The notes under the pieces were generated by a model. It did not search any database. It was not told the origin of the DNA and saw only the letters and a program-made list of their open reading frames with translations. The translations under genes were made by a program, and so were the position numbers. Shown piece by piece: positions 1-55,862 of a stretch of 64,000 bases of DNA. The DNA comes from Trypanosoma brucei (lineage: Eukaryota), in NCBI GenBank assembly GCA_000002445.1, contig CH464491.1:896001-960000 (forward strand), in the 5' to 3' direction. Position 1 is the first letter of the stretch. Every line of letters starts with the position of its first letter.

Positions 1-216
1 CGCACCCACCGTAATGTAAGCAATGGATATAGGTTTCCAACCCTCATTGATTATCACTTTTTTCTTTCTGCAACTTCTTCCTTGACTCATGCTTCGCCAA
101 AGCAATCCGCGTAACATGATCCCTTTCCCCTGCACTTCAAGGTTTCATGGCAATGCAACGTTGCTCGAATACCAATTCCTTTACATTTCGTATTTCGCCC
201 CACCCGATGATGAATT

Positions 217-230
217 GGGGGGGGGGGGGG
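217..230. repeat. G14 homopolymer
   Basis: Read directly from the sequence. Confidence 0.95.
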
Positions 231-3200
231 CTAACAACCTTACGTTGAAAAAAATAAAAATAAAAACGCCAGTCACTGGTGCTATGTTAGCTCCACTACG
301 TAGATTTCCCATCTGTGGAAGGGAATGCATCGCTAAAGAAAATTAAGAAAAAAAAATACCCCTGCCAACTATGCAGCACCCGCGAAAAATTTCTTACACG
401 TCTGGGCACAACTGGCGGGCGCTTTACCTTGTTCACACAAACACATTCACAAGCCATTTCGCTGGCACTGCAATGGTTTATGTTACGCAATTGGCGCTTA
501 ATGCACGAGCCAGAGCAGTTGCACATTCATTTGCAACAAAAAAATATGAAACATTATTCAGTCAGCATAGCATCATTTTACATTAAACATATCACCTTAA
601 TCTATCAAGAGAGATAAAGAAAAGTATACAAATCTATGCGCAAGTGCGTACGGTGAAGGGCAGCAACCAAAACCGTGGCACCAAGTGTACGAAAAGTCCC
701 CATCTGCTGCTGAGGCGAACAAATATGTAGTAGCCTTCGCTATACCAAGTGCATACCCATGTATAGAGACATGCAAACACAATAAGGGACTAGTTAATAT
801 CGCTCCTATCGTCAGATGCGTCAACACGTTTTTGCACCAGTGTCAGGGGAATAAACTAATTATACTCCAGTGAGAATTCACATTTTGGTTAGGAGGACAG
901 TTGTAGACGTCGATACCAACAAGTTAACTAAAATACAATGTCTGGACTAGGGTCACTAGTGGGTGCACCGTTAGACGTGCTGCAACAACCTTCACAGGCA
1001 CAGTATGGAGTGACCGACAAGGTACCGACGGATCGCCTAATGAGAAACCAAACAGTATTGGCATCAACGAAGGTAAATAAAAATATTCATGATTTATTAT
1101 AAAAGTCGTTGTATCCCCATTGGCAGTGACCCATTTGCATCAATCGATATTGAAAAACCGCGCCCGTCATCCCCTATATACCGTCATTGCATCGGTAAAA
1201 CCTCGAAGCCCACTGTGTACACACGTTACTGTGGAACTTGTTGAGGTGGACCTCCTGCAACGAAAACGCTTTACCATGCAACCAAGACGGTGTGGGTCAG
1301 CAGTAACGGGGACACACGAAGGTAGATTACTGCCATAAGCGTCAGTAAGAAAACAACACCTAAACTGGTTATACGCGTAAACGAAATTTAATAAATCTAA
1401 ACAACGCAACTTCCACCGTTATCAACCGTACGTAGTGAGTATTGGTGTGCTTCCGCGAAAAATTGGGGAAAGTAATAATATATGCACAAATTACCGTTCA
1501 GTTAATGCAAAGACAAAAGCAACGAAGCAAAAGCAAAATAACCTGCCTCAACCTCTTTCTCAAATCGAGAGCGAATAGCTCATAGACTCATTCACACCAA
1601 TTTCCCTCCCCCTTCACGTTTTCCGTGGAGTCCAAACGTTGAGAGATGAACTATAGTTACATTGTTTGTCCTGCTAACTGACTCTCTGAGAAGTTTTATT
1701 ACCAACTTACCTGCGTGACTTACCAATATTTTGATATATGACTTTTTTTTTTTAAAAAAAAGTAAAGAATGATATATAAAAGCTTTTCGCACACAAATTT
1801 AGATGAACTACGCTTCAAAATACCACCCCAAATGGTTAAAGAGGTCTTAGTTGGTACGCAGCGGGAAGGGGAATGTAGACACTCAAATCTTTTGAGTTTC
1901 TCTCTCCCCACTTTGTCGAAACGAAAACTCCTTACAATTGTTGCTGTTATTATCATTGCGGGACTAACGTTGCTTCACCTTATTGTAAAAAACCCTAGAC
2001 ATGCTTAACACCGCTCGCCTTCCCGTCGTTTCGCATTGTTCGAGTTTAGATAGCGGTGCGTGTCCGTATGAACCACCAGTTCTGCAATTTTTTAAAATGT
2101 GTGAGTCACATATCTACTTTTCATCTGCTGTTTTCATTTTTAGGATAGCGGCTGCGTTACGCTGTTTCGGAGTGCTGTTGCATAACAGACTCCTTCTATT
2201 CAAATGCAAGGCAATCCCACATCAGATAATATGTGTAGGATGTTAATTCACCCAGCCCAATATCCTTCATTGATTCAAAAGGGCCCAACGAGAAATTTGA
2301 ACCTTTTGAGAAACATGTGACGAAACGTGGATCCCCATATGCAACGACCGATAAGTATTGTATCGAAAGTGGCATAGAAAATAAAACATAGGATCCACGT
2401 CGGTGCAGCAACACCGCACACCGCAGTTTTACGGAGCAAAATAAAATACGTCAACCGCAGGTGCCATATTTTTTTTTTTTAATAAATAAAGCCATCGCGA
2501 GAGTTTCCGAATATTGTTTACCGATACAGTGGCCCCGAGACAACATAGTCATCTAGGCTGCGAACATTTTAAAAAAAAAAGTAACGTAAGGCACCTCAAA
2601 GAATATACTGCGTATGAAAATGCGTACGAATGAGCGTCCTCAAACAAAGCGGCCAAACCGTTATAATATTTCAAACGCAAACAAACCTTCAGCTCCACCC
2701 CAGAACCTTGACGGCGGACGCACTAGAAAGCGCAATGGTATTTTGCGATTTGACCAAATAGTCGCCGAGTTTCACGAACCAACGAATTTCCCAATCCTGT
2801 TTACAATTTTTTAAAAAGGGGCACATCCAGACACGATATGATAAAAGGGTCCGTTGCCACTCACTACAGCCCAAGCCATTCACAATTTCTTAAATTCCAC
2901 ACCGTCCACCACCGCAGTGCTACCAACGTATTCCTCCTTCCTCGGTGCCATAGCTCACACATTCGTGGAAAACAAGCTGACACCCGGTCACTCCGCTGGC
3001 GGCGGACGCTGGGGCGAAATGCCTCCATCTCTTTACTTTAAGTGGCATTGCCTCCTTGAGGAGTTCGACATACGAAACGAACCGCATCTACCCACTGGTT
3101 TTATGAAGCGCGTCCGCGACACTGCCGACCATGTCTACCTGTTTAACCACCAGCGAGGAACTGCAATCGCCGGTTACCTAACGGTACACCCGGTAAGACT

Positions 3201-3673
3201 GCGTAGGGCTCGCACTTTTACCCCTCAGAAGGCAGGCAATAGACATATATAACCGCGAATGCTCGTGCTCCAAACGCCTGAAACGTCGTGGGCTCACAAT
3301 TAAGACCCCTTTCGGCAGGCCGAGCCCGACCTTGGTAGGTACCACAGCACTCCGTATTGGGGAATGTGGCCACGAAGCCTCCCGAAGACATCACGCTAAC
3401 CGTCTCTTTTCCCTCTACCATGCAGAAAACGCACACGCCAAAAGGGTGGTTCCGCCCCCCTCCACATGGTGGCACAATGGAACATGCCAAATTGTTAAGT
3501 GTTTACCTTTTTTTTTTATCGGCCGCAGGAGGAGAGCAATAAGGCGAGATTGTTGTGTCCACGTCGGCCGCTCTGGCGTTGGTCGCACTGGACTTGCCCT
3601 CGATGTGTGGCGAGACGTTCACTAACGGCTGCAGTGGCCCGGCCGTTGTTTCCACAGCTCCAGCATAGATGCC

Positions 3674-3689
3674 GGGGGGGGGGGGGGGG
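3674..3689. repeat. G16 homopolymer inside a GC-rich island
   Basis: Read directly from the sequence. Confidence 0.95.
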
Positions 3690-6600
3690 AATGGATGCTG
3701 AGCCGATAGGCACACCGACTCACGTGGGTGTGGCGATGTTACCCTTCCGCGGCAGTCAGAGGTGCAGCACCGTAGCTCAACAGTCTGGGCTGCCCGTGCG
3801 AGGTGGGGGAAATGTACGGCCCTGCTTTGCGCTAAGCGTATTCAAGCTGCCTGTTTCCCAAGATGGGGCGTGGTGACATTGCTCCCGCAGCTTGCGTCGC
3901 TTGCCTCGGTTGGTGCAATGCGTAGATGCCGTGGGTGGCCGAGGCCTGGTTTATTTTACTTTATTTCCCGCCCGTGGCCAGGGGATTTGTGGGTAGCGCG
4001 TCCTGGTTGCGGCTTTTTCGTGTGCTGGATGGGGTGGTGTGTAACACGCTCCGTCTGTTCTGGCGTCCTGCTGAATGTTTCAGACGGAGGTCATCCGCTA
4101 GCTCGTATATTATAGTATGGCACGTTAAGGGATCGGTTCTTCCGCGGTGATCCTGCTTAAGGGGTCGTCTGGCAATCCATAGCTGCTTGGCGCTATCTGC
4201 AGATGGGCCGAGAAGTTGAGGAGCTGTCCAAGCTGAATGCATACCAGTGTCATATTCCACCGTAGCGAGGGGAGCCTATACTGTTGTCAATGTTGGGGGA
4301 GAAAGCAGGCATTTTCTCCCGATCTCATTTGGTTGATGTAGGTCCTGGAGTTTTTATATATGTTGGATATTGGGTGCGCTCGGCGTTGGAACCAAGGCAA
4401 CTGTTTAGTATCATTCGCTAAAGTGCTAAGGGTCTTCCAGGTGAAGGGGAAACGCACAAATCACCCTCGAGAGGGCTGAATATATTTAGTGTTAACCAGG
4501 TAGAACAATCTATTCAACGGAGGCGATGACACTCATAGCAAAAAAAAAAAAAGAGATATCTGTCCACTCCTTTTGTTTTGCATGCGGGGACGACTGGATA
4601 ATGATTCACTTTTTTTCTCCCCCCCCCCAGGGGCAGTGGGTTAATGCCTTATCATGCGGACCGCGTAAGACACCGGTGCTATTCAGGGACCGATTGAATT
4701 GTCGATGAATAGCCATTTTGTAGGTTAACACTTCGTTATTTTGCTGTGATTCATTTAAACCGCACGGAGCTTGAAGATTCTAGTGGCAGTGTCCGGAGCG
4801 GAACCGTGTGGGGAGGATGGGGGGAGACTTTTTTAAAAAAATTAAAGCAACTCTGTATTTCTGTGTGGAGGAACAGTCAGTGTGCCTGGTGGAGCAACAA
4901 GGTGCCAGCAGAATAACTCTGTTTCACTTGGAAAGTTTTTTTTTTTTGCTGTGAAGGACACGATGTAGAGTCTTACAGAATTACCCTGTTTCACAGGGTG
5001 GTAGGAGATGTAAATGAAATGAATGATGCACACTATGCATTTGGTATCTTTGAATGTGAATTTCGTAGTCCCCAAAGTTTATAGGTTTGTTTCGCAGCGT
5101 CATTACATCAGTTATACCACCGTTGTGCACGAAGCACGACAGTGTCGGTGGAAATGAACAGAAGAATTAAACGGATGAATGCATGACGTAATATCAAATT
5201 GAAGCGTGACGGCCGCTAGGAGGACAATTAAGGGGGTTATTAGGAAACACTATGATGTAGTAGAAGCGTGTGACAAACCTTGTTGCCCAAGCACCGGGAT
5301 GCCGGCGACCCCATTCCTGACATCAGCAACACACTTGTTAAAAATATGTGCTAGCGCTGGGGGACTGTAGCTCATGTGAGCTTTGGAAGCGGCACCCAGA
5401 AGACGATATGCAGTCCGTTTAAATGCAACTTCTCAGTCATTTGATACAAACATAGGAGTTTCTCAGGGATGCCGGCGGTAGTTCTAAGCGAGATTTTGTT
5501 TACGGTGGCTTGTAATAGTGCTGCCACATGCTGAAATAGGGAAGTTTATGCCTTTTACCTAAGTGTTTGGAGCTACCGAATTTTTTTTGATGGCGTGGGA
5601 TTTGGATTAATTCATGTGCTGTAGTTTCTCCTTTCCTCACTTTGCAGTGGGCAGCTGGGTAGGTACCGAGTGAATATTATATAAAAGTGCTGCATATTGA
5701 TATATCCGGGAGACAAGACACACTACAGATGGTTCTGTATTCATCAATGATGGAAACCCTGTTGTAGGTGGCAGAGGAAGTCTTTATTTTGTTTCCCTTT
5801 AAATCTGTGCTGTTGATTACTTTCTGCGTCGTGCACCGTTACAGTTGTTTTAAAATTTAACTCTTCGTGATGATATCTTTCTTTATATCTGGTTTCGTTT
5901 GTTATTACAGCTCTGCACGTGTTTACTAAAAATCGCATTCTTTCTCGTAACGAGAATATATTTGCTAATTTAAGTTTAGTCCTCTGCTTTTTTTTTTGCG
6001 TTACGACAAAGGGGGTTCATATTAAATGTAGAGGAATAATGTTTTTCTGATTGCAGCAATATCTTTCCCTTTCTCCTTTCTTCTATTAGGGAGCCTCCGA
6101 TGCTCGTTGTGGGGGCTTGTGGTTTATTACTCTTCTTGTTTTTATCCGTCGCTGCACGTAACGGAAGTTTCTGTTGGGTTGTGTTGATGCTACGGTGGTC
6201 TCCCGAGGGAATATGGGACAATATGCGTCACAAGTTATCGGGTTATCACAACAGCTTCTGTGTTCTTTTTTAAAAATCTTGCTTACCGCTACACGAGCAT
6301 TGGACTACTTACGCGTTCTGTCTCACGTTTATGATTCTATATGCCTTTTTTTTGTTTTTGAAATGTGAAGCGGGGGTGCGGTATTTTTGCTTTAGGCGAG
6401 TGCTACGGCTCTCGTTGGTGAGAATTGCTCATACTGTGCTTGATTTTATAGGTACTTACATTTGCTTTAAGATACCATTTTTACTATTTATATGTTTTGG
6501 CTCAACCGTTGATCGAGATGGTTGTTTCCCTGTCCTTCTTGGGAGTCCGCGTTAAACGAGTGTCGGTGATGAATGTTCTGTAGCTCTGCTTTCCGTGAAG

Positions 6601-7385
6601 AGGTAATTCCGCGAAGTGACTCCCAACCATTTTTGGATTGACAGTTGCTGTGTGCATTAAATGTTCATGTATTCCTCGTAGTTTTGCCATTCTTGAACGT
6701 GGTCCCGTGCACGCGGTTGCGGCGCAGCATCCTCTGTATGACGTTGTAAAGATGTATCCCATTTACGCGCCAGTAAGAAACACAGGTGAGAAAGGATATG
6801 AGCTCACTTTGTTTGCTGGTGTGAATGTGACTCACATTGTGGTTATTCTTACTGCTCTGTGTTAATCTGGAATAATTATGAGATGATATCCTTCACGCTG
6901 CGTGTACCTGCAAAGGAGTTATTATTTCATTGTTGTCGCCTGAAACTTTTATTGACCGATTTCGTTGCAGCGCTCTTCATTTAAAGAGAAATTTTATTCA
7001 CCTTTGCGTCAATTTATGCTTCTTTAAGTGTCGGTGCTTTTGTTCATGCCCTGCTTGCCCTGATCCAGTGTGTAACTTATATCAATGGCGAGGAGTGGGT
7101 TGTGGATTTTTTTGTATTCTAGTGATGCGCACTCCTATTGTTTGAACTGTCTAAGTTTACTGACAACACGTGCACACACATATGGGATACATTTAACATG
7201 TCACAAATTTCTTTTCAGCGTATATTCTTCACGTAACGTCGTCCCACGGGATGTCTCCACATATCCTTTTTGCGGTGGCAGGGTTTACTCCGACTTCTTA
7301 TTGTTTTACACCCCGAGCTGCAACGACTTTTTGTTTACTTTCATTGGTGTGCGGTGTGGGTCTCGACGGGACATTTCCCTTCCGT

Positions 7386-7409
7386 ACCCCCTTTTTTTTG
7401 GGGGGGGGG
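7386..7409. repeat. Adjacent C5-T8-G10 homopolymer block
   Basis: The sequence is cccccttttttttgggggggggg, read directly. Confidence 0.9.
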
Positions 7410-8151
7410 TGTATTTGAACCCGACCTCAAATTTTGTTGGCGACCAAAGTAGAGTGCAACGAGAAACTATTTTTTCCTACTCATTTGCTAATATATGCTA
7501 TGACCAGGAGTGTAGAAGTTCAAATTTCACGAGGTAGATTTTTGTCATTTATTCCTTTTTTTTCTTTTTAGATGGGGTCACATGTGGTGATTGCAAATCA
7601 TTTACCTCGTTTCATACTCATCTACCGGACGGGGACCGTCACGGAACTTGTGATAGTGAACTGTTGTGGAGGGGGCGCTGTTTATTGGGCTAGATCGTTC
7701 TTACTTTTTTTTTTAAATATTTTGTTGTATTATTTACGCCCATTCATCCTAAATATAGGAGTGGCGTGCATCTTCATCAGATTGGAGGACCCAATTGAAG
7801 TAGTGCTAATAATGGTTCGATGCGCAGACATTTCGAGCATAGGTATTTGGAACATTTTATGTAACTTTTGAAGTTGAATGTACTGTCTACAGCAGTAAAC
7901 AGCTCAGGGATTGGATCACTGGTTGCTTCATGGTTGTAGAAAGTACTCTTATTCTTTGTTTTAAAAAAAGTAATGTGCACTCAACTGTTTAAGTTGCAGT
8001 GAGTGGCAATTGAGGCCATATCCGAATACTGAAATATCATTTGTTACCTTTCCCCCACTCCTAAAAAGTAGGCTAATCTGGTTGTTTATTAATACCGTCC
8101 TTCGAACCTTTTTTTAATGCTTATTACTGGTGTGAATATTGTCTGAATTGG

Positions 8152-8172
8152 TATATATATATATATATATAT
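8152..8172. repeat. (TA)n microsatellite
   Basis: Read directly from the sequence. Confidence 0.95.
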
Positions 8173-8345
8173 GTTGATTTAGAATTTCATCGTGTTTATT
8201 ATAACCAGAGATGGTGACATCACCTTCTCTATTTCCCTCTTGTCACTGCCCACACTGTTTAATTCCTAAGTTTTTTGAGAAACATTCTATTAACATTGTG
8301 TTTTGACCTTAATTTCTACTTCTGTACTAGCTCCGACAGCCCAGG

Positions 8346-8666
8346 ATGGTCAACTACCCGAAGAAAAAGAAGATGCACTGCCCTGATGAGCGGTGCAACG
8401 CTCACAAGAGCTTCAAGGTTGTGCAGTACAAGGCTGGCAAGGCGCGCCTGTACGCCCGAGGTAAGCGTCGCTACGACCGCAAGCAGTCTGGTTATGGTGG
8501 TCAGACAAAGCCCATCTTTCACAAAAAGGCGAAGACGACCAAGAAGATTGTTCTGAAGCTTCAGTGTTCTAACTGCAAATCGATTATCCAGAACGTGCTG
8601 AAGCGCACGAAGCACTTCGAGCTGAACGACAAAAAGAAGACTGGCAACAAGGACCCCACTTGGTAG
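8346..8666 (+). CDS. RPL44: 60S ribosomal protein L44 / L36a (eL42)
   Basis: 106-aa [64 protein letters not shown]...CSNCKS. This is the near-universal eL42 sequence with its C4 zinc-ribbon cysteines. ATG at 8346. Confidence 0.93.
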
Positions 8667-8970
8667 GTTGTGCGGCGAGACTGATGACATCCGGTTTGAG
8701 CAGTATGAACTTTCTTTTTTTCTTTTCATCTTCTGTGTTCTAACTGTGTAATTACGATGGTGTATGAGCGCGCCGAGTTGGCAGGGTGTGCGCAATCTCT
8801 ACTTTTCATTGCGTACAAGCATCATTATACCTCCTTTTAACAAAAATATCTTTATTTTACATACTTCTATTGCCATTTACTTTGGTGAAACTGAACTGTG
8901 ACAAAACGCTATGAAGAATAACCAAGCACAATTAATTGTAAAAGCAGCGAGATTGGATTAAGGGGGAAAG

Positions 8971-10605
8971 ATGATGGCATCTAACCTAGCATACATAAAT
9001 CCCGGAGGGAAACAAGCCCGGAAGGCTAGTGCACTCGAGATAAATATGGTTGCCTCCCGTGGATTACAGGAAGTGCTCAAGACGAACTTGGGCCCCAGAG
9101 GCACAATGAAGATGCTCGTTTCAGGTGCTGGGCTTATTAAAATTACTAAGGATGGAATCACTCTTCTAGGTGAAATGCAGATTCAACACCCAACTGCTGT
9201 TTTCATAGCTCGCGCCGCCACTGCCGTCGATGACATCACTGGTGATGGGACGACGAGCGCAGTCCTTGTGATTGGTGAAATGATGCGGCAGTGTGAGAGG
9301 TACATCCAAGATGGTCTTCATCCTCGTATCCTGACGGAGGGCTTTCGACTTGCCCGCAACGAAGCAGTTAAATATTTGGAGGAAAGCGTCGTTGAGATCC
9401 CCGTTGCCACTCGTCGAGAATACCTCACAAATGTCGCTCACACTGCCCTCTCAACGAAGGTTAACGCACACATGTCGGTTCAACTGGCGGAGGCTGTGGT
9501 TGACTCTGTGCTCGCTGTTGTCCCCGAAGATGGAAGAGAAATTGATCTACATATGGTTGAGGTCATGCACATGAAGCATCGCCTGAGCTCGGATACTCGT
9601 TTTGTGAACGGGATTGTTTTGGACCACGGTGGTCGTAATGACAACATGCCAAAGTACCTGGAGAATGCCTACATTCTGGTCTGTAACGTTTCTCTTGAGT
9701 ACGAGCGAAGCGAACTGAACACCGGTTTTTACTTCAAGGATGCGGCGGAGAAAGCGCGTATGGTTACCGCGGAGCGGAAGGTAACAGATGACCGCGTTAG
9801 GGACATCATTGCTCTAAAGAAACAGGTTTGCACGAAGGAAAATCAGCGCAGCTTCGTTGTAATCAATCAGAAGGGAATTGACCCGATTGCACTGGAGATG
9901 CTGTCCAAGGAGGGGATTTTGGCTCTACGGCGTGCCAAGCGTCGTAATATGGAACGCCTTATTCTGGCCTGCGGGGGTGAGGCCGTAAACACAACCGAGA
10001 ACCTCACAGTGGATGTCCTTGGTGAGGCTGGACGTGTACAAGAGTACACATTGGGTGACGACAAGTACACCTTCGTGGAGGATGCGCGTAAGGGTCGGAG
10101 CTGCACATTGCTTGTCAAGGGACCCAATGATCACACTATTGCCCAACTCAAGGATGCCATTCGTGATGGTCTTCGTGCAGTCAAGAACGCTTACGAGAGG
10201 GGTGGCGTTCTCGCAGGCGCCGGCTCGTTTGAGGTGGCTCTTCACGACCATCTGACCCGTTATGCTGACACCGTGTCAGGTAAACAAAAAATTGGTGTTC
10301 GAGCGTACGCCGATGCCATCCTTGTCATACCGAAAACCTTGGCGGAGAACTCCGGCCTTGATGTTCAGCAGTGCCTTATTTCCCTGCAGGAGGCCAGCCG
10401 ACGAGCACGCCAGGAAGGGCGCTGGGTGGGCCTTCGACTCGACACGGGAAGCACCGTTGACCCGCTAGCGGCTGGGATCCTGGATAACGTCCTTGTGAAA
10501 CGAAGTATTCTAGAGACGACTGGAGAGATTGTCGCCCAGCTACTACTGGTAGATGAAATTATGAAGGCTGGGCGCCGCGGAGCCGGTGCCCCCCCGTCGC
10601 AGTAA
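8971..10605 (+). CDS. CCT6: T-complex protein 1 (CCT/TRiC chaperonin) subunit zeta
   Basis: 544 aa. The N-terminus ARGLQEVLKTNLGPRGTMKMLVSGAGLIKITKDGITLLGEMQIQHPTAVFIARAATAVDDITGDGTTS matches the CCT-zeta signature, including the GDGTTS ATP-binding motif. The group II chaperonin equatorial, apical and equatorial layout runs the whole length. Confidence 0.9.
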   Translation: MMASNLAYINPGGKQARKASALEINMVASRGLQEVLKTNLGPRGTMKMLVSGAGLIKITKDGITLLGEMQIQHPTAVFIARAATAVDDITGDGTTSAVLVIGEMMRQCERYIQDGLHPRILTEGFRLARNEAVKYLEESVVEIPVATRREYLTNVAHTALSTKVNAHMSVQLAEAVVDSVLAVVPEDGREIDLHMVEVMHMKHRLSSDTRFVNGIVLDHGGRNDNMPKYLENAYILVCNVSLEYERSELNTGFYFKDAAEKARMVTAERKVTDDRVRDIIALKKQVCTKENQRSFVVINQKGIDPIALEMLSKEGILALRRAKRRNMERLILACGGEAVNTTENLTVDVLGEAGRVQEYTLGDDKYTFVEDARKGRSCTLLVKGPNDHTIAQLKDAIRDGLRAVKNAYERGGVLAGAGSFEVALHDHLTRYADTVSGKQKIGVRAYADAILVIPKTLAENSGLDVQQCLISLQEASRRARQEGRWVGLRLDTGSTVDPLAAGILDNVLVKRSILETTGEIVAQLLLVDEIMKAGRRGAGAPPSQ

Positions 10606-24984: not shown

Positions 24985-26435
24985 ATGAGGAATAAAGTTA
25001 CCAATTACAAGAGGCAAAAAAGGTGGAAAGATGTGTGTGAATACTTATGCACACAGATGTATATATGTCTATGTATACGAGTTGTGGGGATATGTTGAGA
25101 TTTTTGTGCTTTCGTATGGCTATGAGGCTGCCCCATTTTTTAATCATTAACCCCCCCCCACCGAAAGATAGATGCCCCTTGATGAATATTTTGTATTTTT
25201 TTCCGTTTGTCACTGTGTTTAGTCCACATGGATGGATTACGGGGGGTGATGTTTGACCTTGTTTGACATTGTCGCCTACTATTTTCGTGCAGTGACGGCA
25301 CTGCGGATACCATTATTAGAGCTTCATTCTAATTTTTTTTATTTGTAGAGGAGGCTCTTTCGTAGTCCTCTGTGTACCCACGTGCAGCACACACGCGTTG
25401 CGTGGGCGTGCCTGGGGATGTGCCACCGTTCCGTGGTTGATGATGTTCTCTGTAACTGAAACTGTCCAACCCACTGTTCGCTTTAATTTGATACTTTTCT
25501 CGTTTCATTCTTTTTTTTTTTGCGTTGTGGTGTGACCGCTCCTTTAGGTGGAGCAATCAAAATGTTTATACCTCTCTAGGTTATAGTTTCGTGTCCCTGT
25601 TTATATACGTGTACGCATGCATGTGTCTCCTACAGGGAGACAGGGGTCGCGTCCGCTGAGGGTGATGCATTGCTGTGTCGTATGGAGAGGTTCATTTGCT
25701 GCATCCCCGTTTATGTTTTTCCATGAAGCTTGAGTCGATTCACATGTGCTTCAGGGAAAGATAGCGCCTGTGGAGTGAGGGGTGGGTTGTTACACAAGCT
25801 GTACATCGCAGCCCTGGGGATCGTGTCAAATTTGTCATCTTAAGTCGTCACGTAATTTGGTGAACTATTATTGTCCAGCCTGCGTACACGTGAACGAGGA
25901 CGGTGCGCACTGCAGAGTCCCCGCATTTTGGAATGGGGTTTAAAATACGTCGCTCAATTTCACGGCAGCCGTGCTATTAGTGATGTTATTTGATTGTCTG
26001 TTACTTCACATAAATGTATATTACGTGGTTCGCCGCTTTTCGAATGTTGCGGTGGAGGACCAATATACCTATGAAGGGGGGAAATGAGCATTTGGTGATA
26101 CAATAACCATACAATTTCCCTTTTTTTTTTTTTGCGCACTGTCTGACCACCTGCTTCCGTGCAGCAGCCGTGGTGATGTAAACTTCCGACGCTATACTGT
26201 ATATCACTGTGCTAGTTCAGCGGAAGAATCCACTATTTAGTGTGTTGCCATAACTGTATTCATCGCGCTTTATTTATTTGGTAATATCGTCATATTGAAG
26301 ACACTTTCCCAGCGGGTGCTGCGACGGCCCGCATACTTCACTACGTGTACTTACCGAAACAATTTGCGCATCCTTCTTTTTTTTTCTATTCTTTTTGATT
26401 GTTGGATAGTTTATCTTTCTCTTCCGCTTGCGATC

Positions 26436-48685: not shown

Positions 48686-49725
48686 GAGAGTAGTGCAATT
48701 CCTTTACTCAATTTAGTTTTTCTTGAAATAATTACCTTGTGGTGATGCCCGTAGACCTTTTTCAGGTACTAGTCAAAATGTGCGGTGTCATAGTTAAGTT
48801 TCCGACTTATTGTATGCCATCGTTTCTCCTCCTTTCTCCGTTCTATCTCCTCTTCTCACTCTACATTTCTTTCGTTTGCTCTGAGTTATATGCACCGTCC
48901 ACGAGTTTCTGCTTTTTTTTTCTGTTTTTGAGAGGGGAATGGGAAAAGATTTTACAGCTTTGTTGCTCACACCCCATATAATTTGGATGAGTGACATGCA
49001 CTTTATTGGATACGCATAATATAAGGAGGAGCAGGGGAAGTATTTTAACCCTAATGTTATCCCCTCGCGCACCCGTTCTTTCCCCTGCTTTTGTGGGGAT
49101 TTTTACTTTCTTTTTTTATCTCTCACATCTTTCTCGTTGTTTTTTTTTTTTGGTTCATCAAGCAACATTGACTTCCCACTTACCCATGCTTCTCTCGTGT
49201 TTGTGCAGCATTTTTTTTTTTTTGTATGGGTGTGTGGCTCCCTTTTATTACTTTGAAGGATGGTTTGACTTATTGTGCGCACTCATAACCACCTTTCACT
49301 GAAGGTAAAAGGGAGGTGGCACTGGACTGGGAAGAAAAAGCGAAAGAAATGACTTTGCTTCGCTGGCACACACAAATTCTACCATTATACGATGTTTGGT
49401 ATATGTTTTTGTGTGTTTAATTGCACTTGTTCTTGTGTTGCGCTAATGTGAGGGTGCTTGGTTTTATGATTTCGATGTTTTGCTTTTTTTCTTCTTTTTT
49501 TTTATACAGGAAAAAAAAAGAGAGGAAACGTAATATAACTTCACTGTTGTCGTTATCATTTGTTTCACCATTCACTGTTTGCGTGGGCCCGACTCACCTG
49601 TGGCGTCAACGTACGCTTTATGAGTTCAATTGTGCAAGTCAGCTGTCGTTGCAATAATTGATGAGAAGCAAGTGAGATTGTGGGGGGGGGGGAAAGAAAG
49701 AAAGATAAAAAGAACGGGAAAAAGT

Positions 49726-49770
49726 TATATATATATATATATATATTTATTTATTTATATTTATATATAT
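49726..49770. repeat. Compound (TA)n / (TTTA)n microsatellite, preceded by G11 at 49682-49692
   Basis: Read directly from the sequence. Confidence 0.9.
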
Positions 49771-50223
49771 ACATGCGTGTGAGTGTGTGGGTGTATATTT
49801 ACTCCTTCTTTTGTGAGAGAAGAGACATGAGTGCGGTGTTGCGCTCAATTATTTGAGGGAAGGGGTTCACCATCGGGTATTGCTATGAAGCTGAGACAAC
49901 CTCATCCCTTTCCCCCCGTCGTAACAAAAACAAAAACAAAAAAAAACAACAAAAGTGAAAGGAATGTCTGTACTTAGTTTTTACAATATAGAAAAAAAAA
50001 CGAGAGAGAGAGAGTAGGAAACGAGGCCGATGTACTTTTTTTTTGTTGTTCTCTTAATGTTTCAGTCTCCGAAAAGTGCCTCGGGAAGGGAACACGGATG
50101 AGAGCTTAACGCTCGTATTTTCCCGTTGCTTTTCCATCCCACTTCATATTTCGTTCTTTTTGTTTGCATTCCGCCGTAAACTTTCGGTGCGGGTTGCCTC
50201 CTTCTGTCCGCTGCGTTTTTCGT

Positions 50224-50247
50224 TTGTTGTTGTTGTTGTTGTTGTTG
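50224..50247. repeat. (TTG)8 microsatellite
   Basis: Read directly from the sequence. Confidence 0.9.
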
Positions 50248-51679
50248 TTTTTTGCTTTGAACTATTACCATTATTATCATTATTACGTTGCCGTACCCTT
50301 CTCCCCTCCTTTTTTTTTACTTTTCACTTCATGAAGCGTGGGTGCAAGGTGATAATAATAGTAATAATGATAATATTGTTGAGAAATGAAAAAAAAAAGG
50401 ATGAGGCCGAGGGATTGACATGGAGAAAAGGAGGCAGAAATGGTGGTTATTGGGAACGGTAACGAACGGGTGAAGAGTTTGTTTTTTTTTTCGTGTTTTC
50501 ACTTCGTTTGTCTTTTTCACCGTTTCGTTCATACCATCATAGACAATTTTTCTTGTAAAAATAAATAAATAAAAAAGGTGTGGGCGGAGGAAAGGAAGGA
50601 AGGAATGGAAGGAAGGAAGGGATGGTTGGAGTAAAGGAAAGAGGGGGGAAAAAAAAAGAAGCACAGTTGAGAAAATATATACATTTTTTTTTGTTTTTTG
50701 TCTTTACTTTTTTCCCCCTTTTGCGTGTATGGAAGTGTGCGTTGAAATGTTGTTATTGTTGTTGTTCTTGTTTTTCTGCGGTGTGTGCTATTTTTTCTCC
50801 CTGTCCTCTCGCCCCTTCTTCTTTTCCCCTTTTTGAGAAGTAAAGAGTGAAAGGAATGACTTAATGAGAGAATGGGTTAAGAGAAAATGAAGTGATAATG
50901 TGGAAGATGAAAAAAGAGGAGCCAGTTGTGATCTTTGCATTTATACTTTACTTTTTCTTTGCGTGTGTGTGTATGTGTGTTTTTTTTTTTTTGGGGGGGG
51001 GGCGGGGGAAAGTTATATATTTGGAATTTTTTCCTATGGTGGTGTGGTGTAGTGGCTGCGTTTATGCTTGTTTTTTATTTATTTACTTTTCCCTAATGCA
51101 GAGGCGCACGCATGCATAATTACTGCTGTTGGTATTATGTGATGTGTGAAATGTCCGTCTTTAATTTGGGATTTGGTTGTATTTAGAGCGTATGCGGGAT
51201 GGCGGTTTAGCGAGGAACTGCGAAAGGTGGAAGAAAATTATGGGGGAAAAAAGGAAAAAAAAAAGGAGTACGTAAAAGAAAGAAAGGAAGACACTTGTAA
51301 GAATAATGAGTTTCGTTGCGGCACTAAAGGGGAAAGCCAAGGAAGGAACGGTGCATATAAACAAAGAAAAAGAAGAAAAGGAAGTGACGTTGGGGGCGTA
51401 AAGTTGTTTCCTCCACTTTACTTTACTTTTTCTTATTTTTTTTTTTTTACTTATGATTCTTATCTTTCTTTTCGTTATTTTCGACTCTGGTATGTTTTTC
51501 TTCTTTTTGACCCTTCCGCTCGCTGCGCTCCCCTCTCCCCTTCCCCGACCCCTTTTTTTTTGGGGGGGCTCTTCCTTGAACTCTAAGTGTTATCATCTTT
51601 ATATATTTACACTTCTGCACCTTCCTTCACCTTCAGCTTCACCTTCCCGCAACGCCGCCGCTGATGAGTTTGTCTGATG

Positions 51680-51711
51680 ATAATAATAATAATAATTATT
51701 ATTATTATTAT
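51680..51711. repeat. 32-nt perfect palindrome, (ATA)5A abutting its own reverse complement (TTA)5T
   Basis: ATAATAATAATAATAA|TTATTATTATTATTAT. The two halves are exact reverse complements, with the centre between 51695 and 51696. Confidence 0.9.
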
Positions 51712-51884
51712 TTCTTCCCTCTCCCACTTATTTCGCTCCTCTGTTTTCTTACACAGTGACCTTCCAATGATGTTGGTGCATCTTCAGAGACACTGCCGCA
51801 CCGCCGTCGTAGTTCCTCTGCTGAATTTTTATTTTTCAAATAATAAAGCAAGAAATAAGTTTGTAAGAATTTGTGATTGTTTAC

Positions 51885-51904
51885 ATATATATATATATAT
51901 ATAT
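51885..51904. repeat. (AT)10 microsatellite
   Basis: Read directly from the sequence. Confidence 0.9.
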
Positions 51905-51928
51905 CCGTAATGGTTGTTATTACTACCT

Positions 51929-51949
51929 TTGTTGTTGTTGTTGTTGTTG
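51929..51949. repeat. (TTG)7 microsatellite
   Basis: Read directly from the sequence. Confidence 0.9.
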
Positions 51950-52989
51950 TGGACAGAACAGGAGAGAATCAACCGAACAAAAATCCCCGAAGCTGAAAGA
52001 GAAACCAAACAAACAAACAAAAAAAAAAAGGAACTTCTTAAAACCTTCTTCCCCTCCGTTACATCTCATTTGCCATATCGGTGTGTGAAAGCACGGCTTT
52101 GCTACGATGCCCCGCCGTGTTTGTTTGTTTTTGTTTCATTTGGTCCGATGCATGGCTCTGATGAACTTCATTTTCTCTTCACATGCATACGTATCATATT
52201 CTTTTCTTTTACACTTTTCCCTCTTTTGTTCTTTCTTCATGTACGACTTGTGTGTCTTTCCCTTCTTTTCCCCGCCACCCTCATGCCTTTATTATTAAAT
52301 GACGCATGTGTACCAATGAAAGATGGAACTTGTTAGGTCGTTAGGTGAAGTTTTTCTTTTTTTTAAAAAAAAAAGAAAAAAAAAGAGAAAAAAATTTTCG
52401 AGCCATGGGAGAAGGCGTTTGATGTGTCGTGATGGGGAATGAGATGGAGGAATTGATGTGTGCGTGTGTGTGTTTGTGTGTGGCGTGCTCTTGTAATCTG
52501 AAGTTTAAATTTCAACCTTATGGCCATTGCGGTACTGATTTGGGTTTTTACCTCCCTCCCTCCCTCCCACTGTGTCAATCCTTTACATATTTATGTGTCA
52601 ATTTATTTATTTATTTGTTTGTTTATTTTTATTTATTTAATTTGCTGTTACTTTCATCCCGACATAATTTTGGACCTGTCGCCAATTGTGGTGTCCCCCC
52701 CAAAAAAAAATAAACATATTAATATTCATAAAGGAGAAGGGAAGGTTTTTGACATCAACGAAACTTAAAGGGAAAACAAGTCAACACGTGGAGAAAATTA
52801 AAGAGAAATAAGTGAAGCACAAGAAAAAGGGGAAAAAATAAAATAAAATAAAGAACTAACACAACATTTTCCTTAAAAAAAAAAAAAGGAATTCAAAGAA
52901 ATAGCAGTAGCAGAAGCAAAAGAAAAAGAAAAAAATAAAAAAAAAAGAAAAGCACCAAATACAATTATTATTTATCCACTTACGCATCA

Positions 52990-53406
52990 ATGGTTGAGGT
53001 ACCGCGTAATTTCCGTTTGTTGCAGGAACTTGAGGCGGGGGAAAAGGGAACAGGTGTAAGCCAAAGTGTCTCTATTGGCCTCAGTGGGATGGATGACATT
53101 TATATGCATAATTGGAATGGCACTATTCTCGGACCTCCCGGTACCACATTTGAGAATCGCATCCTCTCACTAGAAATTCACTGCGATGAACATTACCCCA
53201 AACGCCCGCCGAACATTAAGTTCATCAGCCGTGTGAACCTGCCGTGTGTGAGCAGTGATGGTACTGTTGATAAAAACAAGTTTGCCGTCTTCAAGACTTG
53301 GGATCGCAACTTCACAATGGCGCATTGTTTGATGGAACTCCGTCGGGAGATGTCGCTTCCAGCTAATAAAAAACTACCGCAACCGGAGGAGGGTTCAACG
53401 TATTGA
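52990..53406 (+). CDS. Ubiquitin-conjugating enzyme E2 variant (UEV1/MMS2-like; catalytically inactive partner of Ubc13)
   Basis: 138 aa. VPRNFRLLQELEAGEKG...WNGTILGPPGTTFENRILSLEIHCDEHYPKRPPNIKFISRVNLP...KTWDRNFTMAHCLMELRREM...KLPQPEEGSTY aligns along its whole length with UEV1/MMS2. It lacks the HPN plus catalytic Cys of active E2 enzymes. Confidence 0.88.
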   Translation: MVEVPRNFRLLQELEAGEKGTGVSQSVSIGLSGMDDIYMHNWNGTILGPPGTTFENRILSLEIHCDEHYPKRPPNIKFISRVNLPCVSSDGTVDKNKFAVFKTWDRNFTMAHCLMELRREMSLPANKKLPQPEEGSTY

Positions 53407-54897
53407 TGAGGCCGCCATTTGTTGTGATCGCTGGCCCTCTTTCTTTTTCTTTTTTTTTTCCTTTTCTTTTTTTTTTTCTTCACCTTTCTTCATTTGTTTG
53501 TTTTGTTTGTTTTTGGTTCAATTCCTTCCTTCCTTCCTCCCCTCCCCTCCCCTCTCCTCTCTATTTCTCTCCTCTTTCTTTCTTTTTCTAAAACCCTCTG
53601 CTACGACACTAAAACTATGATAATTATGATGGTAATAACTTTTAATTATTATTATTATTATTGCGATTATAGTTAATACTCTTATGTTCTCCTAAGTGTG
53701 TGTGCATGCGTTTTAAAAACAAAAAAAAAGGGGAAAGAAGGAGAAATGAAGTTAGAGCGGAAAAATAGGAGAAAAGTACGAGTCAACGTAAAAAAAAAAA
53801 GGAAGAAGAAACAGCACCAAATAAAAACGTGGGAGAAAAATGAAAAAAAAAAAGAAACAGAAACTGAAACTGACACAAGAAAATAATAAATTTTTTATTT
53901 GTAAAAAAGAATGAAGGAAAGAGGTAAATGTTAGGAGAGATTGGTTGGTAGGGCCATCATGTTGACAAGACAGAAAAGGCAAAAAAAAAACAAAGGGGGG
54001 CAGGAACAGAAATAAAGTAAAATGAGAAAAGGAGTTTTTTTTTTTTTTTTGAAAGAAAAAAAAGAAGAAAGGGAAAGGGATATGAGAGAGTGAATCGTAA
54101 TTATACACGGAAGTAAATAAAGGATGGAAGGAATTAATTGTGTGTGTGTTTTTTTTGTTGTTGTTGTTTTTTTGTTGAGGGGAGAGGAAGAAATAAAAAG
54201 AGAAGAATCAGAAGAAAAAGGGAAGAGAAAAAGAAAGTGGAAAGAGGGGAGTGTATAAGGAAGAGTTGCGAGGGAGTCATGCATCTATATATCCCATGCT
54301 GTGTGTTTCTTTTTTTTTTATTATTTGAAGGAGGGGGAAATAAAAACAACAATAACAACACTCATTACATGCGCACGCACAGGGACGACATGCGTTTGAA
54401 TTTGATATAAGAAGAAAGAATTGCTTGTGAAGAAGAAGGAATAGTGAACAGCGAACACCAATTTTTTTTTTCTAAAAAAAGAAAAAAAAAGGGACAAAAG
54501 GATGCATTGTTTTGAGGTTATGAGCGCCCGCCAATCCTAAACCCTCCATACTTTTAAAAAAAAAAATGATGTTTGAATGACGTCCATAACACATTTCTTC
54601 GAAAGCGAGGAGGAGGATAAAAGAGGATGAAATTGCTCAAAAAGAGTAAAAGGGATAAAAATGTATCATTTGAAATACTCCAGAAGTAACGCGGTATACC
54701 ATATAGGAAGCAGAATATATATATGGTATATGTTTTTCATGAAAGTTTCCTCTACTCTTCCAAAAAAAGAAAAAGAAGAAAAGAAAAAAAAAATCATAAC
54801 ATGAGCCTCAGAATGTTGCCGGACAAGTGAATGTACGTTTTTTTTTCTTTTTCTTCTTTTTTTTTTTCTTCTGTTCGACTTGATTTTGATATCTTCC

Positions 54898-54960
54898 ATA
54901 TATATATATATATATATGAGTGAGTGAGTGAGTGGGGGGGGAGGGAGGGAGGAAGGAAGG
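54898..54960. repeat. Compound microsatellite: (TA)10, then (GAGT)4, G8, (GGGA)n and (GGAA)n
   Basis: Read directly from the sequence. Confidence 0.9.
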
Positions 54961-55188
54961 GAGTTGAAGGCCCGTCACTACTTGTGTGGACGAGCGTTTA
55001 TGTACGAGTGTGCTTGTGTTTGTGTTTGTGTGTGTGTGTTTTTGTTTTTTTTTTTCGTTTGTCGGTGTTCGTGTTCGTCTTTGAAAAGGGGGAGGGGAGG
55101 AGTTGCTGATGTTTCTCTTAACTTTGCTTTATTCTTGGTTCTGCGTTACCCTGCTTAATAAAAAAAAACAATATGTGAAGAAGGGAAT

Positions 55189-55206
55189 TATATATATATA
55201 TATATA
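55189..55206. repeat. (TA)9 microsatellite
   Basis: Read directly from the sequence. Confidence 0.9.
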
Positions 55207-55862
55207 GAAGAAAGCAAAAACAAAAAAAGGAGCGAGATATAATTCTTCTGCTAGGGTGTTGCACTGTTCGTGAGTTCCCTCTTTTGTTCTTTTTTTTTGT
55301 TGTTGTTGTGAAGGTTGAGGAGTCAATTTGTAGGGACCACACGTATTGTCTCAATCTTCCATCTTTCCTTTCCTTTTTTGTGTGTGTTTTGTTCAGTATT
55401 TTATCTTTTTCCTTTTCACTCCACTGATTGCTCTTTTCTCTTTCCCTCTCTCTTGTAGTTGTTGTTTTGTCATATCAATGATAGATGAAAGGCAAGCTAA
55501 TAGAAAACATAAAACATGGCAGTCGGTGATATCAATGAGGTAACCTCTTTGTAAAGTCGGATGTATTGTTTTGATCCTGTGATTTGAATTATTATTTTCC
55601 TCAATGTCGGTTATATTATGAACATATGGGGGAGTGGAAGGTATACATAGGTGCAATTTGTGATGGTTTGTGTGAGAATATCACAAGCTTTCTAGCGGGT
55701 GCACTTCGTGGTCAGATGTTTTTTTTTCTTTTTCCTTGGGCTTCTTCACATCAACTGCAGGTGGTATTAGACGCTGCTGTTGAGATACTTGCGAGGATGC
55801 TGACGTGCAGAATTCCCCCAATAGCACAATATGTTGATTTGTTACTCTCTTCTATTCGACAG

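Follow-up and report, generated by a model that had tools for sequence, protein, structure and literature searches.

Divergent strand-switch region between MCA1 and RPL44 on chromosome 11 of Trypanosoma brucei: gene arrangement, strand composition and poly-G tracts

Results

Location and gene content of the MCA1-RPL44 region

The DNA considered here is a 64,000-nucleotide stretch of Trypanosoma brucei (GenBank assembly GCA_000002445.1, contig CH464491.1), referred to below as the window. Our subject is its first 8345 nucleotides, which precede the gene RPL44 and carry several long poly-G and poly-C tracts. An earlier description made from the letters of the window (hereafter the sequence-only reading) had called this region a gene desert, and proposed that it is an RNA polymerase II (pol II) start region or a strand-switch region (SSR).

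Published annotation was placed on the window, which corresponds to Tb927_11_01_v4:896001-960000 on TREU927 chromosome 11, using an offset of 896000. The offset was anchored by three published poly(A) sites, all giving the same value: those of Tb11.02.0740 (RPL44; 904749, 3' untranslated region (3'UTR) of 83 nt), Tb11.02.0750 (906800, 3'UTR of 195 nt) and Tb11.02.0810 (947997, 3'UTR of 3312 nt). It was confirmed independently by three published transcript starts, each of which sits exactly 3' of a polypyrimidine tract and an AG splice acceptor in the window. Positions given below are window positions, and the features of the region are collected in Table 1.

RPL44 is the first protein-coding gene of a rightward polycistron. 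In each of three T. brucei-group assemblies, the neighbor of the window on its left is a - strand gene for a metacaspase (Peptidase_C14, 372 amino acids), namely MCA1 (Tb11.02.0730 / Tb927.11.3220), whose ATG is separated from position 1 by about 240 bp. Positions 1-9000 of the window aligned to chromosome-11 contigs of these assemblies, which encode the RPL44 protein, with identities of 99.7% for T. equiperdum OVI, 98.6% for T. b. gambiense DAL972 and 98.3% for the third. Because MCA1 lies upstream on the - strand, positions 1-8345 and the additional ~240 bp together form a divergent SSR of ~8.58 kb, flanked by MCA1 (-) on the left and RPL44 (+) on the right, the arrangement that defines such a region. 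The sequence-only reading had left it to the strand of the upstream gene whether the region is divergent or an internal start; the metacaspase places it in the former class.

The longest open reading frame (ORF) in the region has exactly 150 amino acids (7085-7537, +), so that the statement that none exceeds this length held. The only other ORF of at least 150 amino acids that touches the region is antisense to RPL44 (159 amino acids, 8316-8795, -). ARAGORN found no tRNA genes in the region, Rfam gave no matches either at the gathering score or at E ≤ 1, and none of the ten longest ORFs had a Pfam match at the curated threshold. As in an SSR, the interval from MCA1 to RPL44 is free of protein-coding, tRNA and other known RNA genes.

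Table 1. Features of the MCA1-RPL44 region, in window positions.
Feature	Position	Strand	Remarks
Tb11.NT.35	1449 to about -95	-	1544 nt; 1.05 RNA per cell; Table S7 chr11 897449-895905
G14	217-230	+	Non-coding strand of the leftward unit; inside Tb11.NT.35 (C14 in that RNA)
Tb11.NT.36	2557 to 1561	-	996 nt; 0.3 RNA per cell; Table S7 898557-897561
Transcript-free core	2558-4938		Gap between NT.36 and NT.37, ~2.4 kb
GC-rich island	2751-4250		GC 0.51-0.60; straddles the polarity switch
Strand-polarity switch	3491		Minimum of cumulative (G+T)-(A+C)
G16	3674-3689	+	Coding strand of the rightward unit, 183 bp right of the switch
T7-C-T-C10 polypyrimidine tract, AG directly after	4610-4630	+	Has the form of a candidate trans-splice acceptor
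Tb11.NT.37	4939-6300	+	1361 nt; 0.69 RNA per cell; Table S7 900939-902300
Tb11.NT.38	6371-8197	+	1826 nt; 0.89 RNA per cell; Table S7 902371-904197
C5 T8 G10 block	7387-7409	+	Inside Tb11.NT.38, 3.9 kb downstream of the switch
RPL44 (Tb11.02.0740 / Tb927.11.3230)	8346-8666	+	Pfam Ribosomal_L44; Kolev 2010 Tables S6, S13, S14

Published evidence for transcription initiation

Both flanking units are listed as divergent pol II units, with MCA1 and RPL44 as their first ORFs, in Table S14 of Kolev 2010, as 'Tb11.02.0730 to Tb11.22.0001, -, Divergent' and 'Tb11.02.0740 to Tb11.02.1040, +, Divergent'. This table is based on sequencing of 5'-triphosphate RNA, one of the checks that the sequence-only reading had named, and we took the answer from the published data by look-up rather than by recomputation. 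According to Kolev 2010, 5'-triphosphate reads are enriched at every divergent unit of Table S14, in both sense and antisense orientation, and the units of this table coincide with the histone-marked sites of Siegel 2009. Tiengwe et al. 2012 flagged mca1 as 'start of DGC' (directional gene cluster). Together with the - strand MCA1 gene upstream, these data bear out the proposal of a pol II start region at a strand switch.

Transcripts within the region

Four novel processed, polyadenylated transcripts of low abundance were mapped within positions 1-8345 by Kolev et al. 2010 (Table S7). Two of them, Tb11.NT.35 and Tb11.NT.36, run leftward, and two, Tb11.NT.37 and Tb11.NT.38, run rightward. The term gene desert therefore holds for protein-coding genes, but the desert is transcribed. 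The longest ATG-initiated ORFs of the four transcripts have 76 (NT.35), 78 (NT.36), 57 (NT.37) and 150 (NT.38) amino acids, and none of the transcripts appears in the tables of conserved or peptide-supported novel ORFs in Kolev 2010. NT.38 contains both the 150-amino-acid ORF and the C5T8G10 block. The sole homologue of this ORF among 5.8 billion proteins is a T. b. gambiense 'hypothetical protein, unlikely'.

Three of the four transcripts begin at recognizable acceptor sequences. On the - strand, NT.35 starts right after a polypyrimidine tract and AG, and NT.36 right after a T10 run (A10 at 2571-2580 on the + strand) and AG; NT.38 starts exactly after T8GT5...AG. Unlike these three neighbors, NT.37 has a listed 5' end, 4939, that falls inside a T12 run and is not preceded by AG. 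Kolev 2010 reported that spliced-leader-poor transcripts occur at start regions, and NT.37 may be one of these, a remnant of the primary transcript without a spliced leader. Alternatively, its end may be imprecise, or an artefact of read trimming at the T run. We considered the C10 tract with its AG (4619-4630) as a splice acceptor for NT.37; the listed start is 4939 instead, and the tract is an unverified candidate for this use.

Between NT.36 and NT.37 lies a core devoid of mapped transcripts, which holds the polarity switch, the GC-rich island, G16 and C10.

Strand composition and the GC-rich island

The cumulative excess of keto bases, (G+T)-(A+C), reaches its minimum at position 3491, and this position is the minimum both for the region and for the whole window. 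The keto fraction of the + strand is 0.447 to the left of this point and 0.579 to the right (chi-square p = 6e-33). Left of 3491 it is the - strand that is rich in G+T, and right of 3491 the + strand. A reversal of polarity, with G > C and T > A on the coding strand, is thus found within the SSR.

The switch lies inside a GC-rich island, the presence of which in the sequence-only reading was confirmed. GC content in the island peaks at 0.60 (3501-4000), compared with 0.38-0.46 in its flanks, and the observed/expected ratio of CpG is ~0.9-1.0. A T10 run (3508-3517) and then G16 follow the switch on the + strand.

Homopolymer tracts

The G14, G16 and C10 (4619-4628) runs of the sequence-only reading were found exactly where it had placed them. 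The C5T8G10 block is present as well, but starts at 7387 rather than 7386 (C5 7387-7391, T8 7392-7399, G10 7400-7409). The region contains four G or C runs of at least 10, compared with 0.015 expected from composition-preserving local block shuffles (~270-fold). Their density is 0.48/kb, against 0.11/kb in the other non-coding DNA of the window (~4-fold).

In Dataset EV1 of Wedel et al. 2017 (PMC5579346), GGGGGGGGGG (G10) is the top 10-mer on the coding strand in the first fifth of 199 start regions (132 vs 17). The same study showed that synthetic GT/G-rich elements give orientation-dependent transcription and H2A.Z deposition, and are nucleosome-depleted. We counted the 10-mers of this dataset in the two arms of the region. 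The right arm has 25 on the + strand vs 4 on the - strand, and with G16 located 183 bp from the switch, the rightward unit carries the signature of a GT-rich promoter. The left arm has 13 on the - strand vs 9 on the + strand. Seven of these nine come from G14 alone, and without G14 the count is 13 vs 2. The leftward unit has the signature only in part, and lacks an own-strand G run of at least 7 near the switch.

G16 is also the sole G-quadruplex (G4)-type motif in the region; apart from it, searches for repeats, palindromes and G4 motifs gave nothing beyond homopolymer-driven matches. If the region holds a poly-G/GT-rich promoter or nucleosome-excluding element, G16 is its best candidate, and a plausible one. 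The published poly-G/GT-rich signature fits G16 but not G14, C10 or G10, and the four tracts are not equivalent.

The remaining tracts have other contexts. C10 forms part of the T7CTC10-AG tract, which is pyrimidine-rich in other strains yet variable. As to G14, the distal parts of start regions contain few non-coding-strand G10 tracts in the data of Wedel 2017. We also asked whether the C14 that G14 presents on the - strand could be the polypyrimidine tract for trans-splicing of MCA1. This was rejected because the tract lies inside Tb11.NT.35, the poly(A) site of which is at about -95. G16 (3670-3691) and the C10 tract (4614-4635), both in the core, can be read as a 22-nt inverted repeat with 77% complementarity and 922 nt between the arms, which probably follows from the two homopolymers alone.

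In three other T. brucei-group genomes, G16 is represented by G13, G10 and G12, and G14 by G10, G10 and G9. Among the four closely related genomes, all four tracts vary in length and persist at no fewer than 8 bases in every strain.

The locus in related trypanosomatids

T. cruzi and L. mexicana likewise have a divergent switch at the start of the RPL44-TCP1-dynein array. The gene-free gap in T. cruzi is ~6.5 kb, with the switch at position 4518 of the locus sequence and an RRM gene placed before RPL44. The gap in L. mexicana is ~1.8 kb, with the switch at position 6073, a + strand G10 at 6792-6801, and a P5CR gene before RPL44. The upstream genes in T. vivax are on the + strand (for example, a Tyr_Deacylase gene) and no polarity switch is present; a head-to-tail order seems to have taken the place of the divergent one in this species. 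In the T. vivax locus sequences (1-9400 and 1-6470), ~5.5 kb before RPL44 is gene-free, and is in part very AT-rich (GC 0.28-0.35).

The rest of the window

Beginning at 8346, every real gene up to the end of the window is on the + strand, as the sequence-only reading had stated. Pfam identified them as Ribosomal_L44, TCP1 (TCP1-zeta), dynein heavy chain (4681 amino acids), DNA_pol_A (DNA polymerase family A), squalene epoxidase, kinesin, Tcp10_C, RagA and RRM_1. The description of this array as densely packed was correct in part, but 48.7-55.8 kb is without an ORF of at least 150 amino acids. This second ~7 kb (48686-55830) is AT-rich, with many A/T runs, and is not a start region. It contains the 3.3-kb 3'UTR of Tb11.02.0810 (poly(A) site at window position 51997), a 138-amino-acid UEV-like gene (Tb11.02.0815, 52990-53406), and Tb11.NT.40 (55459-55843), which Kolev 2010 lists as putatively non-coding. 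G runs in this stretch are G11 at 49682 and G10 at 50993.

Another catalogued transcript, Tb11.NT.39 (749 nt, 3.0 RNA per cell), occupies a seemingly empty intergenic gap at about 25548-26297, between the genes for the dynein heavy chain and the family-A DNA polymerase. A second RPL44 gene, encoding an identical protein, is present on another chromosome (T. b. gambiense FN554965 and CM010673). This copy sits within a + strand array, between genes for hypothetical proteins of 613 and 487 amino acids, away from a strand switch. Just upstream of the splice-acceptor region of the RPL44 gene of the window is a (TA)n microsatellite palindrome (8144-8189), to which the bulk of the indel variation among strains within 8001-8500 (25 indel columns) is due.

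Discussion

A divergent start region between MCA1 and RPL44

The divergent orientation of MCA1 and RPL44, the polarity switch, the homopolymer tracts, and the published maps of start units and transcripts are direct observations, and establish that this is a divergent, published and typical T. brucei strand-switch / start region rather than an internal start. We consider it highly probable, at roughly 93%, that it comprises two back-to-back pol II transcription start regions, one for the MCA1 unit and one for the RPL44 unit. The place of initiation within the core, and a causal role of G16 and of the GT bias at this locus, are what we infer from these observations.

Pol II would most likely initiate in a dispersed and bidirectional manner within the ~2.4-kb core, 2558-4938, which is centered on the GC-rich island and in which strand composition flips at 3491. 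The strand that codes in each arm is rich in G+T, and the rightward arm opens with G16. GT-rich and poly-G sequence of this kind, shown in T. brucei to give directional initiation, H2A.Z deposition and nucleosome depletion, may set the direction of transcription on either side. The nascent polycistronic RNAs would then be cleaved at the earliest polypyrimidine-AG and poly(A) sites that can be used. Such cutting could yield the four RNAs of low abundance and small coding potential (leftward NT.36 and NT.35, rightward NT.37 and NT.38), and the first real mRNAs after them would be those of MCA1 and RPL44, respectively.

Several observations weigh against assigning such a role to the sequence of the core and its tracts. 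The best own-strand G run of the leftward unit near the switch is a G6 (3455-3460), and G14 is on the wrong strand for this unit. An ordinary 3'UTR in another part of the window, that of Tb11.02.0810, likewise has runs of 10-11 G. We looked for extra conservation of the core among T. brucei strains and had to reject it: the core is the most variable segment, with 17 substitutions/kb vs 8-15 in the arms. A sensitive blastn search of 1-8345 against the loci of T. vivax, T. cruzi, L. mexicana and T. congolense gave no match at E ≤ 0.01, with RPL44 as a control aligned at ~80%, and with a T. congolense contig that ends before the switch. Since the core is the least conserved part and has no cross-species similarity, it bears no sign of a sequence-constrained promoter. 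The architecture is old; the sequence is not conserved.

Alternative explanations

The tracts could be neutral products of replication slippage in AT/GC-biased non-coding DNA, with initiation driven by the chromatin and genomic context. Their length differences among the four closely related genomes, the G11 and G10 runs in the Tb11.02.0810 3'UTR, the position of G14 and C10 on the non-coding strand of their arms, and the lack of extra conservation in the core all speak for this reading, as does the equivalent switch in T. cruzi, which does not have any G or C run of at least 8. Against it stand a frequency of runs ~270 times that predicted from composition, a density ~4 times that in other non-coding DNA of the window, and the retention of every tract at 8 bases or more in all strains. 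Against it, too, are the coding-strand position of G16 at 183 bp from the switch, the place of strongest G10 enrichment across the genome, and the directional transcription driven by synthetic GT/G-rich elements. We regard a neutral origin of the tracts as a real but tentative possibility, falling somewhat short of even odds. An additional function of the region as an ORC1/CDC6 binding site, possibly a replication origin, would be compatible with transcription initiation. ORC1/CDC6 binds 62 of 88 divergent SSRs (70%), 19 of 42 early origins center on divergent SSRs, and the mRNA of MCA1, flagged 'start of DGC', rises 1.48-fold after RNA interference against ORC1/CDC6. Only ~20% of divergent SSRs are early origins, however, and we would put the chance of such a dual role slightly below one half.

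The gene-free DNA, and the GC-rich island in particular, might instead be the relic of a decayed gene or retroelement, for example, of an RRM or P5CR gene, given that RPL44 is preceded by one additional + strand gene in T. cruzi and in L. mexicana alike, and that the island has a GC content of 0.57-0.60, at or above that of coding DNA, with ORFs of 97-132 amino acids inside it. This is very improbable in view of the similarity searches. When the T. cruzi RRM protein, the L. mexicana P5CR and nodulin-like proteins, the T. vivax upstream ORFs and MCA1 were used as tblastn queries against 1-8345, the best E value was 3.3, which is at chance level. The ten longest ORFs are without a Pfam match, the 150-amino-acid ORF is an orphan save for its T. 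b. gambiense counterpart annotated as unlikely, and NT.35-38 are missing from the conserved and peptide-supported sets of Kolev, so that the relic was rejected for want of similarity. The head-to-tail gene order of T. vivax, where RPL44 is preceded by + strand genes and the composition does not switch, would suit an internal region of transcription start or termination, or else the very long UTR of some + strand gene lying to the left. For T. brucei this is refuted by the - strand gene upstream in the T. brucei group, the flip in composition at 3491, the - strand orientation of the transcripts mapped left of the core, and the 'Divergent' entry for both units in Kolev 2010, which leave it next to no likelihood.

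Bolder variants of the divergent start region can be formulated. Instead of a diffuse GT-rich start zone, G16 and the GC-rich island could together make up a discrete module, a boundary or promoter acting on one side, that fixes where the two units part. In that case the wrong-strand G14 in Tb11.NT.35 would act as a start of antisense transcription, as a pause site, or as an R-loop/G4 site tuning the output of MCA1. Another option is that NT.35-38 serve as functional long non-coding RNAs. We consider these suggestions unlikely.

The status of the locus as a start region is already on record, the strand bias of poly-G and GT-rich sequence is also in the literature, and the four transcripts in the desert have been catalogued since 2010, so that little is added here as discovery. 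The sequence-only reading recognized the logic of a kinetoplastid genome correctly and blind, from the raw letters. The locus may be of use as a compact test case, since a clear G16 stands at the switch for only one of its two sides, an asymmetry suited to asking whether poly-G causes directional initiation or merely accompanies it.

Comparison with known systems

The mammalian CpG-island promoters, which are dispersed and bidirectional, were offered as an analogy in Kolev 2010, and share with this region a GC-rich island, a CpG observed/expected ratio of ~1, and broad divergent initiation without TATA or initiator (Inr) elements. The likeness is one of analogy only, as the output in trypanosomes is polycistronic and matured by trans-splicing, without a comparable logic of CpG methylation.

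Among the Leishmania switches, the orthologous one of L. mexicana, upstream of P5CR-RPL44, resembles the region in its + strand G10, but differs in its size (~1.8 kb vs 8.6 kb here) and has no sequence similarity to it. The divergent switch of L. major chromosome 1, in work ascribed to Martinez-Calvillo and dated 2003, reportedly has a homopolymeric G/C tract near the start sites.

The GT-rich dispersed promoters of Wedel 2017 (PMC5579346) comprise synthetic and endogenous ones. The region shares with them coding-strand G and T runs, the 25:4 ratio of 10-mers in the right arm, and a G16 early in the start region. It differs in that its own promoter activity is putative, and in that the density of 10-mers, 5.2/kb, is only ~1.6 times that on the + strand of the rest of the window. 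Papers citing Cordon-Obras 2022 credit it with a 75-bp sequence-specific core promoter, and a recent paper gives the norm for T. brucei divergent SSRs as 5-10 kb with two opposed core promoters.

The closest match is with the other divergent SSRs of T. brucei (Siegel 2009; Kolev 2010; Wedel 2017). Like these, the MCA1-RPL44 region lies between genes that diverge, has a length within 5-10 kb and is free of protein genes. Also as in these, each coding strand is skewed (G > C, T > A), poly-G marks one of the two start regions at its 5' edge, and the first gene is preceded by non-coding transcripts of low abundance. Nothing essential sets it apart from them, and its peculiarities are the one-sided poly-G (G16 on the right, G6 on the left) and the G14 on the non-coding strand near MCA1.

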